Positions 52,549-61,248 of a stretch of 64,000 nt of DNA are shown one piece after another. The notes beneath the pieces are model-generated. The model saw nothing but the letters and a program-made list of their open reading frames with translations. It searched no databases and was not told the DNA's origin. The position numbers and the translations under genes were made by a program. Positions within the stretch are counted from its first letter, which is position 1. Each line of letters begins with the position of its first letter. Source of the DNA: Escherichia coli (GTDB lineage: Bacteria; Pseudomonadota; Gammaproteobacteria; Enterobacterales; Enterobacteriaceae); the NCBI RefSeq assembly GCF_030384885.1, contig NZ_CP128613.1. The stretch is one strand, 5' to 3'.

Positions 52549-55014
<2,466 letters not shown>

Positions 55015-55030
55015 GTTCACTATAAAATAG

Positions 55031-55060
55031 AACGGGGCCAAATCGGTCCCGTTTTTTTTC
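55031..55060 (+). terminator. rho-independent terminator after glgP
   Basis: Hairpin aacggggccaaatcggtcccgtt followed by tttttttc. Confidence 0.8.
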
Positions 55061-55131: not shown

Positions 55132-56649
55132 ATGGAAAGAATAATGCAAAACAGAAAATGGATTTTGACCTCGCTGATAATGACTTTTTTCGGCATCCCC
55201 ATACTGGCGCAATTTTTGGCAGCGGTTATTGCCATGCTGGGGGCCGGGCTTGCCGCTATTCTTGAGGCTTGCAATTTACTCTTTACGCCAACAATTTATC
55301 TTCTACTCAACGTCTTTATGCTGACGCTGGGGGCGATAATCCTATTTTTCTCTGGTCGCGTGTGGGCCGGTGATAGCGCACCAGAAAACAGAGAAATAGC
55401 CGTCTGGCGGCAATGCTTTTTTCTTTTACCTGCACTGTTAACTCTGGTTGGCTGGATAATCACGCTACATCTGGCAGATTATCAATTTCGCCAAATGGGA
55501 GCAGGTTGGTTGGCAGAGCTTATGCTCCCCTGGCTGGGAGTTTTGTTAGTCTCATTAGTCGGAGGTGAGTTCTGGTGGATAGTCATTATACCCGTTGGTG
55601 CGCATATTAGTTTTTCGCTGGGGTATGGCTGGCCGACCAGATATCCTTTAACCGGCACGTACGGGTTACGTTGCCGTAATTCCCTCCTGTTTATCCTTCT
55701 CATGCTTGGTTTTATCGCTGGTTATCAGGCTTATTTATATAAACAGATTAATCCCGGCGTCGGTGTGCGTGAAAATATTGATACCTGGGCCTGGCGACCC
55801 GATAAACTCAATAATCAACTGACGCCACTGCGTGGTAAACCGCAAATTCAGTTTACACAAAACTGGCCGCGACTCGATGGTGCTACGGCGGCGTACCCAA
55901 TTTATGCTTCTGCCTTTTATGCGTTGAGCGTTATACCGGAAGATTTCCACACATGGGAATATCTGGAGAACTCTCGTACCCCCGATGCATATAACAGGAT
56001 TGTTAAAGGTGATGCCGATATTATTTTTGTGGCGCAACCTTCCGGTGGGCAGAAAAAACGTGCAGAGGAATCGGGCGTCACTTTGAACTACACTCCTTTC
56101 GCCCGTGAAGCATTCGTTTTCATCGTCAATGCGGATAACCCGGTTAATTCCCTGACTGACCAACAGGTGCGTGACATCTTCAGTGGCGCAATTACCAACT
56201 GGCGTACTGTTGGCGGTAACGATCAGGAGATCCAGACCTGGCAACGCCCGGAAGACTCTGGCAGCCAGACAGTGATGCAATCGCAGGTCATGAAAAATGT
56301 CCGCATGATCTCGCCGCAGGAAACCGAAGTGGCAAGCATGATGGAGGGAATGATTAAAGTTGTTGCCGAATACCGTAATACAAACAACTCAATAGGCTAC
56401 ACCTTCCGCTATTACGCAACACAAATGAATGCCGATAAAAATATAAAACTGCTAGCTATTAACGGTATTGCACCGACTGCGGAAAATATTCGTAACGGCA
56501 AATATCCATATATCGTCGATGCCTTTATGGTAACGCGGGAAAATACTACGTCAGAAACACAAAAACTGGTCGAATGGTTTTTAACGCCGCAGGGGCAGAG
56601 TCTGGTGGAAGATGTGGGTTATGTACCGTTGCATACAACAATGAAATAA
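55132..56649 (+). CDS. hypothetical fusion protein: N-terminal multi-pass membrane domain + C-terminal PstS-like (PBP-like) periplasmic binding domain
   Basis: 505-aa ORF; the first ~230 aa are hydrophobic helices; the C-terminal domain carries PstS-family-like segments (NSLTDQQVRDIFSGAITNWRTVGG, WQRPEDSGSQTVM); start may instead be the ATG at 55144. Confidence 0.8.
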   Translation: MERIMQNRKWILTSLIMTFFGIPILAQFLAAVIAMLGAGLAAILEACNLLFTPTIYLLLNVFMLTLGAIILFFSGRVWAGDSAPENREIAVWRQCFFLLPALLTLVGWIITLHLADYQFRQMGAGWLAELMLPWLGVLLVSLVGGEFWWIVIIPVGAHISFSLGYGWPTRYPLTGTYGLRCRNSLLFILLMLGFIAGYQAYLYKQINPGVGVRENIDTWAWRPDKLNNQLTPLRGKPQIQFTQNWPRLDGATAAYPIYASAFYALSVIPEDFHTWEYLENSRTPDAYNRIVKGDADIIFVAQPSGGQKKRAEESGVTLNYTPFAREAFVFIVNADNPVNSLTDQQVRDIFSGAITNWRTVGGNDQEIQTWQRPEDSGSQTVMQSQVMKNVRMISPQETEVASMMEGMIKVVAEYRNTNNSIGYTFRYYATQMNADKNIKLLAINGIAPTAENIRNGKYPYIVDAFMVTRENTTSETQKLVEWFLTPQGQSLVEDVGYVPLHTTMK

Positions 56650-56674
56650 CTTTTGAGAGAACGGAATCAGCGCG

Positions 56675-57667
56675 ATGAATAAATTCATAGGCGTTTTACT
56701 GCTAGGTGCGGTTTTACTGGCGGGATGTGTCGACCGGGAAGGCTACTATAACAGCGTCAGGGAAGAAGACAGCCATGGACTGACGACTCTGCGGGGGCAA
56801 CCTGAATTACGTTACAACGATGATTGGTCAAGATGGCCGAGAGTATACGGCGCTACAGCCTTATACCCGCTGTATGCCTCCGCGTATTATGAATTAGTAC
56901 CCGAGCCAAAAGATAAGGATCGAACCTCGCTGGCCTGGCAGGCGTATGGTTTGCAACAAACCCGAACAGCTGAAGCCTACGATAGTCTGATCAAGGGTAC
57001 CGCGACGGTTATTTTTGTTGCACAACCGTCGGAAGGACAGAAAAAACGTGCAGAAGAAGCAGGCGTTAAACTGAAATATACCGCGTTTGCCCGCGAAGCC
57101 TTTGTCTTTATCGTTGATATCAAAAACCCGGTTAATTCACTTAGCGAACAGCAGGTCAAAGACATTTTTAGCGGTAAAGTGAGTCGCTGGAATAAAGTGG
57201 GCGGCGGTGACGAAAGTATAAAAGTCTGGCAGCGGCCAGAAGATTCTGGAAGCCAAACGGTTATGAAGGGACTGGTTATGCAAGATACTCCAATGCTGCC
57301 AGCCAAAAAATCCACTGTTATCGATCTTATGGGCGGTTTAATTACCGAAGTCGCCGACTACCAAAACACAACATCTTCCATTGGATACACCTTCCACTAT
57401 TACGTCACACGTATGAATGACAATATGCTCAAAATGCGCAAACAGATCAAACTGCTAGCTATAACTGGCATTGCGCCTACAGAGGAAAATATCCGTAACG
57501 GCACTTATCCGTACATAATTGATGCTTATATGGTGACGCACGAAACCCCTGCGCTGGAAACGCAGAAATTCGTCGACTGGTTTTTAAGCCCGCAGGGACA
57601 GCAATTGGTAGAGGATGTGGGGTATGTGCCGATTCATGACGCATCATACGAATCATCAGTGCAATAA
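56675..57667 (+). CDS. hypothetical PstS-like (PBP-like) lipoprotein, paralogue of the C-terminal domain of the upstream gene
   Basis: 330 aa; lipobox LLAGC; long identical/near-identical stretches with the preceding protein (FVAQPS.GQKKRAEE.GV, NPVNSL..QQV.DIFSG, WQRPEDSGSQTVM, IGYTF.YY.T.MN). Confidence 0.85.
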   Translation: MNKFIGVLLLGAVLLAGCVDREGYYNSVREEDSHGLTTLRGQPELRYNDDWSRWPRVYGATALYPLYASAYYELVPEPKDKDRTSLAWQAYGLQQTRTAEAYDSLIKGTATVIFVAQPSEGQKKRAEEAGVKLKYTAFAREAFVFIVDIKNPVNSLSEQQVKDIFSGKVSRWNKVGGGDESIKVWQRPEDSGSQTVMKGLVMQDTPMLPAKKSTVIDLMGGLITEVADYQNTTSSIGYTFHYYVTRMNDNMLKMRKQIKLLAITGIAPTEENIRNGTYPYIIDAYMVTHETPALETQKFVDWFLSPQGQQLVEDVGYVPIHDASYESSVQ

Positions 57668-58269
57668 TGATGAATAAAATCAGACTTTATATTCCTCCGT
57701 TAATTCTTGGTTTTGTTATTGTGCCGTTGTTGGTGTGGCCGACGGTGGTTGCGCTGGCTGCTTCTGTTATCACGCTGAGTTTTCTGGGAGAGATACTGTT
57801 CTCTATCCCGCTCATGATCAGGCGTATTTCACTTCTGCAATTACAACTATGGTTATCGGCTGAATATGCGCTTTTCTTCTGTGCAATGGTGGGCGTTGGT
57901 TGGCAATTTGCGCGCAGAACGCCACCTGAATTGAAAAGCAGACTGCATTGTTGGCTGGTATTTGCACCAGTTTATTTCTGGTTGCTCCTGTGGAATATCA
58001 TTTTCTATGTCGCGCCAGCGAATATTGCGTTGCTGGAGAATATGCGCAGTTTCTTTCTGACAGTTGTCTGGCTCCCACTGAATTTTTCGCCATTTTGGTC
58101 TCAACCGTGGATTGACTTTGTCGGTCCAATAAGCGCACAGCTTGGTTTTGCGTTGGGATATTATTGCCAGTGGCGTAGCAAAAATAGAAGCCAGATACGG
58201 AAGTGGAGTGAGTGGGGAACGTGCCTGAGTTTTGTTACGTTGGGTATGATGGCGTGGGCTTTGCGGTAA
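57667..58269 (+). CDS. hypothetical membrane protein, paralogue of the N-terminal membrane domain of the 505-aa protein
   Basis: 200 aa, multi-pass; TAATG overlap with the upstream lipoprotein gene; segment GPISAQLGFALGYYCQW matches PVGAHISFSLGYGWPTR of the fusion protein. Confidence 0.75.
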   Translation: MMNKIRLYIPPLILGFVIVPLLVWPTVVALAASVITLSFLGEILFSIPLMIRRISLLQLQLWLSAEYALFFCAMVGVGWQFARRTPPELKSRLHCWLVFAPVYFWLLLWNIIFYVAPANIALLENMRSFFLTVVWLPLNFSPFWSQPWIDFVGPISAQLGFALGYYCQWRSKNRSQIRKWSEWGTCLSFVTLGMMAWALR

Positions 58270-58376
58270 TTCCCTGACTCAAAAAGTAGGTCAGATTGTT
58301 GACAAAGTGCGCTTTGTTCATGCCGGATGCGACATGAACGTCTTATTGGCCTACAAGACCATGCAAATTGTAGTGG

Positions 58377-59626
<1,250 letters not shown>

Positions 59627-59742: not shown

Positions 59743-61248
59743 TTACGACGCCAGCGACAACCTCTGCTGCGTATATTCCCCTAGCCACTGACTCACACGG
59801 GATTGTTGCTGCGCATTCAGCCACATGCCTTGTTTTGTGCGACGCCACAGGGCATCGTCGGCGCGGCGGACCCATTCGTGGTCGACCAGATATTTCAGCT
59901 CTGCTTCGTAAAACTCATGCCCGAAATCCTCCCCAAGATCGCTTACCGCCCCCGCATTGCCGAGCAGCAGCTCGCTATTGCTGCCGTAAGTGCGCGCGTA
60001 GTGACGTGCCAGCGATTCAGTCAGGAACGGGTAACGGCGGCGCAGGCGGGCGGCGTAATCGTCGCGGTCGCCTTCAATGGCTCCGCCCGGCAGCACGCTC
60101 TCTTTCGTCCACGCTGGGCCAATGCCCTGATAATATGGCGTCAGTTTTTCCAGCGCGTGTTCCGCCAGTTTGCGGTAGGTGGTCAGCTTACCGCCGAATA
60201 CCGATAACAGCGGAGCTTTGCCGTTTTCATCATGGATATCAAGGGTGTAATCACGGGTAATGGCCTGCGGCGAATCAGATTCATCATCACACAGTGGACG
60301 CACGCCGGAGTAGGTCCAGACGATATCATCCCGGCTTAGCGGCTTTTTAAAGTGCGCGTTATACACTTTCAGCAGGTAATTGATTTCACTCTCTTCAATC
60401 TTCACCGCTTTCGGATCGCCTTTATACTCCACATCGGTGGTGCCGATAATGGAAAACTCGTCCATCCACGGGATCACGAAGACAATACGTTTATCTTCGT
60501 TTTGCAGAATGTAGGCTTGCTTCTGGGTATGCACACGCGGCACGACAATATGGCTGCCTTTGATCAGGCGAATGCCATAAGGTGAGGGTAGATGCATACC
60601 GTCGTCGAAGAACTGCTTCACCCACGGGCCGGTGGCGTTCACGAGGCCGCGCGCTTGCCAGCTATATTTTTTGCCGGTATCGATATCTTCCGCTTCCACA
60701 ATCCACAGGCCGTTTTCGCGGCGAGCAGAAGTGGCACGAGTACGGGTAAGCACTTCACCGCCTTTACGCACCACCATCTGGGCGTTGGCGAGTACCAGAC
60801 GGGCGTCGTCTACCCAACAGTCGGAATATTCGAATCCGCGCTTAATTTCCGGTTTTAACACTGAATTTGCGCCAAAACGCAAACCGGTTGATCCCGGCAG
60901 GCTGGTGCGTTTACCCAGATGATCGTACATAAACAGACCAATACGGATCATCCACGCCGGACGCAGATGCGGGCGATGCGGCAGGCGAAAACGCATCGGG
61001 AAAGCGATATGGGGAGCCATTTTCAGCAACACTTCACGTTCAGCCAGCGCCTCGCTGACCAGGCGGAATTCATAGTGCTCAAGGTAGCGCAGGCCACCAT
61101 GAATGAGTTTTGAACTGGCGGAAGAGGTCGCACAAGCGAGATCCTGCGCCTCCAGCATCAGCACGGATAAACCGCGTCCAGCGGCGTCTGCCGCGATACC
61201 AGCACCATTGATGCCGCCACCTATCACAATCAGATCTTTGGTTTCCAT
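59743..61248 (-). CDS. glpD: aerobic glycerol-3-phosphate dehydrogenase GlpD
   Basis: Recognised from METKDLIVIGGGINGAGIAADAAGRG (501 aa, FAD-binding GxGxxG). Confidence 0.97.
   Translation of the reverse strand: METKDLIVIGGGINGAGIAADAAGRGLSVLMLEAQDLACATSSASSKLIHGGLRYLEHYEFRLVSEALAEREVLLKMAPHIAFPMRFRLPHRPHLRPAWMIRIGLFMYDHLGKRTSLPGSTGLRFGANSVLKPEIKRGFEYSDCWVDDARLVLANAQMVVRKGGEVLTRTRATSARRENGLWIVEAEDIDTGKKYSWQARGLVNATGPWVKQFFDDGMHLPSPYGIRLIKGSHIVVPRVHTQKQAYILQNEDKRIVFVIPWMDEFSIIGTTDVEYKGDPKAVKIEESEINYLLKVYNAHFKKPLSRDDIVWTYSGVRPLCDDESDSPQAITRDYTLDIHDENGKAPLLSVFGGKLTTYRKLAEHALEKLTPYYQGIGPAWTKESVLPGGAIEGDRDDYAARLRRRYPFLTESLARHYARTYGSNSELLLGNAGAVSDLGEDFGHEFYEAELKYLVDHEWVRRADDALWRRTKQGMWLNAQQQSRVSQWLGEYTQQRLSLAS

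Follow-up and report, generated by a model that had tools for sequence, protein, structure and literature searches.

Between glgP and glpD in the Escherichia coli sequence analysed here, three intact open reading frames (ORFs) lie on the same strand, tightly packed, 3' of glgP. We call them g1, g2 and g3, and we refer to the whole stretch, 64,000 nucleotides (nt) of contig NZ_CP128613.1 (assembly GCF_030384885.1), as the window. An earlier note, made from the sequence alone, had described these genes as an uncharacterised module pairing PstS-like binding domains with a novel membrane domain. The ORF list of the window bears out the three genes, their extent and their strand, and RefSeq annotates the same three in E. 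coli 2013C-4282, to which the window is 100% identical; there g3 is a 'hypothetical protein' and both g1 and g2 are labelled as ATP-binding cassette (ABC) transporter components. In our reading, the unit that they form does not serve a dedicated ABC importer as its receptor. The genes and the features within them are the following:

55132..56649, + strand: g1, 505 amino acids (aa) from the ATG at 55132; a membrane domain fused to a PstS-like, predicted periplasmic domain (ORF, RefSeq coding sequence, Pfam, AlphaFold2 (AF2) model, and dN/dS, the ratio of nonsynonymous to synonymous divergence)
55132..55761, + strand: membrane domain of g1, about aa 1-210
55813..56649, + strand: juxtamembrane linker and PstS-like type-II binding domain of g1, aa 228-505
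55879..55905, + strand: N-lobe ligand loop GATAAYPIY of g1, aa 250-258
56242..56268, + strand: C-lobe ligand loop QRPEDSGSQ of g1, aa 371-379
56675..57667, + strand: g2, a PstS-like lipoprotein of 330 aa
57667..58269, + strand: g3, 200 aa, a free-standing homologue of the g1 membrane domain

The start of g1 is ambiguous within 12 nt (ATG at 55132, the ATA at 55141 used by RefSeq, or ATG at 55144); most of its homologues start with MMQNRKW or MQNRKW. The spacing between g1 and g2 is 25 nt, and the stop codon of g2 and the start codon of g3 share one base (TGATG).

Searches with hidden Markov models placed the binding domains of g1 and g2 where the earlier note had put them rather than in an unrelated family: Pfam PBP_like_2 (PF12849) matches residues 250-485 of g1 at 1.4e-29 and residues 94-306 of g2 at 3.4e-29. 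When the g1 binding domain was compared by Foldseek with the Protein Data Bank (PDB), PstS structures came out on top (9l8j, 4gd5, 1twy and 4q8r, with E-values of about 1e-14 and target-normalised TM-scores of 0.64-0.78), and the family profile matched 4q8r and 4gd5 at about 5e-26. The assignment of g2 as a lipoprotein also holds: it starts with a lipoprotein signal peptide, and its N-terminus, MNKFIGVLLLGAVLLAGC, is a lipobox in which the Cys of LAGC is residue 19 (nt 56729-56731), with Val as the +2 residue. g2 shares 59% identity with the g1 binding domain; the similarity reaches into the segment preceding the fold, and the juxtamembrane linker motif is kept in g2.

Is the ligand site of PstS retained along with the fold? 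In profile alignments with the phosphate-bound PstS of Clostridium perfringens (4gd5/4q8r), the G-S-T-S of the latter is aligned to G250-A-T252-A of g1, the first Ser of its G-S-S to T283, its S-R-D to A301-Q-P303 and its R...S-G-T to R372...S376-G377-S378. We take the phosphate ligands of E. coli PstS to be T10, F11, S38, D56, R135, S139, G140 and T141, which would presumably put the loop GATAAYPIY of g1 opposite GAT10F11 and the loop QRPEDSGSQ opposite R135...S139-G140-T141. By this mapping, which runs via 4q8r and is approximate, six of the eight ligand positions are retained or conservatively replaced in g1, the residues concerned (T252, T283, R372, S376, G377 and S378) being near-invariant in the family. 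Conservation was counted over 72 family members outside Enterobacterales: D296 and G377 are present in 72/72, G250, T283, P303, S304, R372, S376, S378 and Q379 each in 71/72, and T252 in 62/72. The two most conserved peptide stretches of the family, picked automatically for a genome scan, are the two PstS-type ligand loops. That these stretches coincide with the canonical anion-binding loops argues for ligand binding at the canonical cleft as the conserved function. Additional invariant aromatic residues (Y255, Y258, Y414 and F425) are found around the site; given these residues and the loss of an acidic one, to which we return below, the ligand may be either orthophosphate or another phosphate-type anion or ester.

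The membrane domain resembles no family in the databases searched. Neither Pfam nor NCBIfam gives a match for residues 1-220 of g1 or for g3, and the predicted fold has no relative outside the family in the PDB or in the AlphaFold Database (AFDB), AFDB50 returning family members only, so that the novelty claimed for this domain in the earlier note withstands structure prediction. The AF2 model of the whole of g1 has a mean pLDDT of 86.4, a pTM of 0.73 and an ordered linker; for the membrane domain alone the pLDDT is 89.1 and the pTM 0.86. Helices are modelled at residues 2-46, 53-82, 87-114, 119-144 (broken), 149-169 and 177-206. Lys and Arg residues, averaged over 29 homologues, are concentrated at the N-terminus (2.3) and in loops 76-93 (3.2) and 166-183 (4.4), the remaining loops being poor in them. 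This clustering suggests an N-in, C-out domain that crosses the membrane five times and has one further segment, interfacial or re-entrant, and the positive-inside rule, together with the lipobox of g2, would place the binding domain in the periplasm.

The third gene turned out to be a relative of the first. A profile of the g1 membrane domain, built from 78 homologues, was matched by hhalign to a profile of the g3 family with a probability of 98% (E-value 1.6e-13) over 167 collinear columns starting from residue 1, and a profile of the g1 membrane domain only recovered a g3-family member at 6e-6 in a library-wide search. The locus thus reads membrane-binding, binding, membrane, that is, one fused and one split copy of a single pair. 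This pairing is exclusive. Run against 1.84 billion representative proteins, the membrane-domain profile found just 185 matches at E <= 0.001; among the best 150 of them, 94 are fused to the binding domain of this family, 56 consist of the membrane domain only and 0 have another partner domain. These 56 include many fragments as well as some complete proteins, 180-215 aa long. Within this protein set, the domain, a novel fold, occurs only fused to the family's binding domain or alone.

Close full-length homologues occur in Escherichia, Klebsiella, Salmonella, Intestinirhabdus, Phytobacter, Budviciaceae, Leminorella, Leclercia and Brachymonas, and the family extends much further. A scan of one genome per species yielded at least 255 loci, 80 of which were kept for neighbourhood work. 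Many of these 80 belong to Bacillota (Lysinibacillus, Psychrobacillus, Paenibacillus, Sporosarcina, Exiguobacterium, Desulfosporosinus, Enterococcus), others to Actinomycetota, Spirochaetes, Bacteroidota, Planctomycetes, Verrucomicrobia and Desulfovibrionaceae. Two to six predicted membrane segments precede the binding domain in 77-79 of the 82 family ORFs at these loci, and the exceptions, five at the lower count, include gene fragments. In its long form, the membrane part measures about 200-250 aa and matches the profile; the short form has three segments in about 110-120 aa, and in some cases the match is to the C-terminal half of the profile. Family genes stand alone in Klebsiella oxytoca, Jinshanibacter, Brachymonas and at two Salmonella positions.

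A conserved operon partner was considered for the 80 loci and rejected, the recurrent families being paralogues of ABC ATPases, scattered over 22 loci without a fixed position, and response regulators (12 loci). Linkage to pstCAB was never seen in this set. The sole recurrent immediate neighbour is a gene for an XRE-type helix-turn-helix protein of about 150 aa, located directly upstream on the same strand in six Bacillota loci of several genera. One of the Salmonella paralogues, a second copy with 39% identity, lies between ruvC and ruvA beside a Peptidase_C92 (YebB-like) gene (L011 9001-11193); the Brachymonas copy overlaps the end of ruvB (L007 6938-9503), and a ruv neighbourhood recurs in distant taxa. 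In Pseudocitrobacter cyperus (L103 9001-11057), a 334-aa lipoprotein copy is overlapped by a 351-aa membrane-domain gene (profile E-value 2e-24) with an internally deleted binding domain; this pair is a plausible intermediate toward the g2-g3 arrangement.

Within E. coli we scored 5426 complete genomes, taking at least 80% coverage as presence. g1 occurs in 3347 of them (62%), g2 in 884 (16%) and a g3-type gene in 3828 (71%). In 882 genomes, including O157:H7 and ATCC 8739, the 3.4-kb query spanning all three genes is covered to 80% or more; the module occurs in most E. coli strains, among them O157:H7, O104:H4 and ST131. The commoner haplotype (O104:H4, L099 4664-6752; L002 4564-6652) has two cytoplasmic-looking proteins of 236 and 255 aa in place of g2 and keeps a g3-type gene, whose product is about 70% identical to g3. 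Neither of the two substitute proteins belongs to a Pfam family; their one link is that the 236-aa protein resembles the YbbD-like family NF007301 over its first 45 residues. In E. coli strain 8178 (L002 1-4390), the glgP-glpD slot also contains an operon for chaperone-usher fimbriae, located upstream of the 236-aa, 255-aa and g3-type genes, which points to the slot as a general insertion hotspot. The TA054 lineage has three binding-domain genes in a row (516, 307 and 326 aa), and the module is flanked, both there (L012 5988-6413, 11636-12064) and in Pseudocitrobacter (L103 11231-11659), by secreted repeat proteins of 141-142 aa (...D(S)xG(N)xT(T)YRDRNGN...).

The statement of the earlier note that K-12 has only a degraded remnant here, yzgL, proved correct: on alignment, the yzgL pseudogene corresponds to nt 1-226 of g1, the last 60 nt of g3 persist beside it, and no intact orthologue is present in K-12. 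By this alignment, yzgL is the deletion scar of the module, and its deletion in K-12 explains why the module has never been studied. Our searches of the literature for yzgL, the locus tags and PBP_like_2 returned just two mentions, both of O-island 133. The module is most likely this O-island of enterohaemorrhagic E. coli (EHEC), an identification based on gene numbering. Deletion of the whole island decreased type III secretion in a screen (PMC3378721).

Comparison with other E. coli alleles gave dN/dS values of 0.10-0.12 for the whole of g1 (0.17 for the membrane domain and 0.06-0.085 for the binding domain), 0.13 for g2 and 0.16-0.29 for g3, against 0.00-0.03 for glgP and glpD. These ratios indicate that the three genes are functional and under purifying selection, less constrained than housekeeping genes; diversifying selection was not detectable in g1-g3 at the resolution of this allele comparison. 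Between ATCC 8739 and O104:H4, the synonymous divergence (dS) of g1 reaches 0.49 whereas that of glgP is just 0.028, which suggests that old alleles are exchanged at the glgP-glpD site. The window strain itself is unusually divergent at synonymous sites from both ATCC 8739 and O104:H4 (dS of 0.19-0.20 for glgP and 0.27 for glpD), and its GlgP protein is identical to that of O104:H4.

The flanks of the module in the window are made up as follows:

52567-55014: glgP, the gene 5' of the module
55033..55059, + strand: intrinsic terminator of glgP (stem CGGGGCC, loop aaatc, stem GGTCCCG, T8), read directly from the sequence
58377..59590, - strand: IS3-family insertion sequence between g3 and glpD, with orfA (115 aa) and orfB (248 aa) and a programmed frameshift (ORFs, RefSeq)
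59743-61248: glpD, beyond the IS3-family element

The glgP terminator marks the upstream boundary of the module. It is absent from the output of our consensus terminator scan. The IS3-family element lies outside the module, and ATCC 8739 has no insertion sequence at the g3-glpD position. A palindrome resembling repetitive extragenic palindromic elements, gccggatgcgacatgaacgtcttattggcctac, is found at about 58321-58353, just before the IS3-family element.

In other Enterobacteriaceae, the family keeps company with genes of the kind that confer immunity to toxins. In Klebsiella, g1 is followed by DUF4279 and YbbD-head genes, and in Salmonella by a YbbD-like gene (NF007301, 432 bits); DUF4279 has been linked to polymorphic-toxin immunity proteins (PMC13304343). 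In two Salmonella contexts, g2-like lipoprotein genes lie inside or at the tail of Rhs orphan arrays (L008 3229-9981 and L101 1888-9483), which hold Rhs C-terminal fragments, PAAR fragments, small toxins and small lipoprotein or membrane genes. This association is real. One Rhs C-terminal toxin of these arrays, at L008 4571-4993 and with an internal stop codon, contains a His...Asn-Cys motif reminiscent of permuted papain-like (LRAT/NlpC) enzymes. We considered whether one Salmonella copy might be the cognate immunity gene for the Rhs toxin upstream of it and rejected this, since the Citrobacter homologue of that toxin is followed by a 92-aa gene and not by a binding protein. A role in anti-phage defence was likewise rejected, PADLOC giving no match for g1, g2, g3 or the two proteins of the alternative haplotype.

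How might these proteins work? No ABC permease or ATPase gene lies between glgX and rtcR, in accordance with the observation of the earlier note, and the pstCAB transporter genes that a PstS-like protein would serve are likewise missing from the 80 related neighbourhoods. The explanation we favour, tentatively and as possible rather than probable, is an orphan membrane-integrated receptor, in which the ligand state of the binding domain passes via the membrane domain to a partner encoded elsewhere. The most likely ligand of the periplasmic PstS-type domain would be a tetrahedral oxyanion resembling phosphate, or a phosphate ester, held in the canonical cleft between its lobes, and the family-specific polytopic domain would hold it at the surface of the inner membrane. 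g1 would then be the fused form of the receptor and g2 (lipoprotein binding domain) with g3 (membrane domain) its split form, a g2-g3 complex presumably mimicking g1; the probable origin of the split form is a tandem copy that lost its own binding domain by decay. The partner, speculative in both existence and identity, would be a membrane protein that receives either a signal or, in a hand-off, the ligand. In a few Bacillota a histidine kinase gene directly adjoins the family gene, and in Paenibacillus senegalimassiliensis it overlaps the start of that gene.

Several observations weigh against this explanation. We identified no partner protein for g1-g3; the window holds no histidine kinase gene, such a gene is nearby in just about 4-6 of the 80 loci, and all-against-all clustering of the 1084 neighbouring ORFs at these loci revealed no conserved neighbour. 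A kinase linkage in Rahnella was rejected, since it is the ordinary purB-phoPQ neighbourhood with the family gene in between and looks accidental. The membrane domain lacks an output domain on the cytoplasmic side, and its intramembrane residues include no conserved charged ones. As for phosphate as the ligand, both binding domains score below the cut-off of NCBIfam TIGR02136 (PstS family), g1 with 118.8 bits and g2 with 115.8 against 206.6; no match to the Pho box CTGTCATAWAWCTGTCAY with three mismatches or fewer was found anywhere in the window; and the position of Asp56 in PstS is Ala301 in g1, again by the approximate mapping via 4q8r, so that plain orthophosphate may not be the ligand. 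In g2, residue ~110 (GTATVIF) is a Thr where g1 has the Asp296 shared by all the distant members; the Salmonella lipoprotein copies retain Asp here, and g2 of the window lineage may, to judge from this substitution, bind differently. Finally, the secretion phenotype of O-island 133 comes from deletion of the whole island in a screen without follow-up.

Could the cleft hold a lipid head group? We think it rather unlikely that these proteins are handlers of a lipid-linked phosphate, in which the lipid tail would lie in a groove of the membrane domain and its phosphate or pyrophosphate head group in the PstS-like cleft, the lipid then being sequestered, presented or shielded; undecaprenyl-(pyro)phosphate, lipid II, a teichoic or lipoteichoic acid precursor and a phospholipid are candidates. 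Such a role would suit the obligate coupling of the two domains by a conserved linker, and a gene that stands alone in both Gram-positives and Gram-negatives fits a universal envelope lipid. Loss of the Asp56 equivalent and the extra aromatics are compatible with an esterified phosphate, and the conserved residues W108 and Q199 of the membrane domain are close to the periplasmic ends of its helices. However, this support is all indirect, and no lipid-handling protein matches the membrane fold in structure.

It is unlikely that the tethered binding domains act as auxiliary PstS proteins that capture orthophosphate for the housekeeping PstCAB importer and deliver it in trans, the membrane domain being a mere anchor. 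Multiple PstS paralogues and tethered binding proteins are frequent in bacteria, and the PstS-like fold and sequence of g1 and g2, with six of eight ligand positions kept or conservatively replaced, speak for it. Yet a single helix or a lipid would do as an anchor, whereas a domain of three to six helices has been kept across phyla, never with any other domain. The alanine in place of Asp56, the missing Pho box, the sub-threshold PstS-family scores and the lack of pstCAB linkage at the 80 loci speak against such delivery too.

A particular form of lipid handling, which we consider distinctly unlikely, would draw in the immunity-type neighbours. The family would consist of transporter-independent envelope proteins spanning phyla, whose PstS-type cleft, set on its own membrane domain, grips the head group of undecaprenyl-(pyro)phosphate or lipid II, and which were recruited and multiplied in Enterobacteriaceae as a shield against envelope-targeting toxins. 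This would explain the presence of the genes among orphan immunity genes and in Rhs arrays.

More doubtful still is that g1-g3-type proteins are themselves orphan immunity proteins, protecting against periplasm- or membrane-acting toxins of competitors (Rhs/type VI secretion system (T6SS) effectors, contact-dependent inhibition (CDI), bacteriocins). The g2-like lipoproteins in the Rhs/PAAR orphan toxin-immunity arrays of the two Salmonella contexts would fit, as would the DUF4279 and YbbD-like cargo of the same glgP-glpD slot in Klebsiella and Salmonella, a copy number varying from 1 to 3, and the deep allelic divergence of g1 relative to glgP. On the other hand, the E. coli locus contains no toxin gene, the Citrobacter homologue of the toxin adjacent to the Salmonella copy has a different companion, and PADLOC found nothing. 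Near-invariance of small-ligand loops across phyla is unusual for toxin-binding immunity proteins, selection is purifying rather than diversifying, and outside Enterobacteriaceae the genes stand alone, distant from toxin loci.

It is highly improbable that the module is a decaying relic of a former transporter or island with no current function: the region has been lost by deletion from K-12 and many other strains, a copy stripped of its binding domain may have given rise to g3-like genes, and expression was low in EDL933 arrays (PMC2907692), but the reading frames are intact in thousands of genomes, dN/dS is 0.07-0.29 and the family is kept across phyla with invariant site residues.

Beyond what the earlier note contained, the analysis adds the homology of g3 to the g1 membrane domain, the commonness of the module, its likely identity with O-island 133, a stand-alone family spanning phyla, and the immunity-type and Rhs company. 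g1-g3 represent a distinct and very widespread family in which a known binding fold is used in a new, transporter-independent architecture; it is at present misannotated as an ABC transporter component, a role that nothing in our analysis supports. Working out its ligand and partner would correct a mass annotation and might bring to light a novel mode of sensing or handling envelope molecules that contain phosphate, and the orphan immunity-type genes gathering at the locus raise the testable question of whether the family has a part in inter-bacterial conflict.

Known systems resemble this family in part. T6SS/Rhs immunity proteins (Tli, Tai, Tsi) share with it a lipoprotein or membrane location, the Salmonella Rhs orphan arrays and immunity-type neighbours; they differ in that the g1-g3 family has a conserved small-ligand pocket, a spread over many phyla, purifying selection and no identified cognate toxin. 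PstS of the PstSCAB importer (E. coli 1ixh/2abh) is like g1 and g2 in its type-II fold, its Pfam match and both ligand loops, GAT- and R...SG(S/T). Unlike PstS, g1 and g2 are linked neither to pstCAB nor to a Pho box, fall under the NCBIfam cut-off, have Ala at Asp56 and extra invariant aromatics, and pair their binding domain with a polytopic membrane domain, either fused or encoded by the adjacent gene. Importers of the OpuABC or GlnPQ type do join a substrate-binding domain covalently to a polytopic membrane domain, as in g1; however, g1 has no ATPase gene nearby, and its membrane domain is N-terminal with only three to six helices. PstS can also act as a co-receptor, for the chemoreceptor CtpL (PMC8050422). 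Compared with PstS-CtpL of Pseudomonas aeruginosa, LuxP-LuxQ and TorT-TorS, the binding domain of g1 has a membrane domain of its own, with neither an output domain nor a linked receptor, but in all three systems a membrane protein, in place of a transporter or alongside one, reads the ligand state of a binding protein, which is the role that we propose, tentatively, for the g1-g3 unit.

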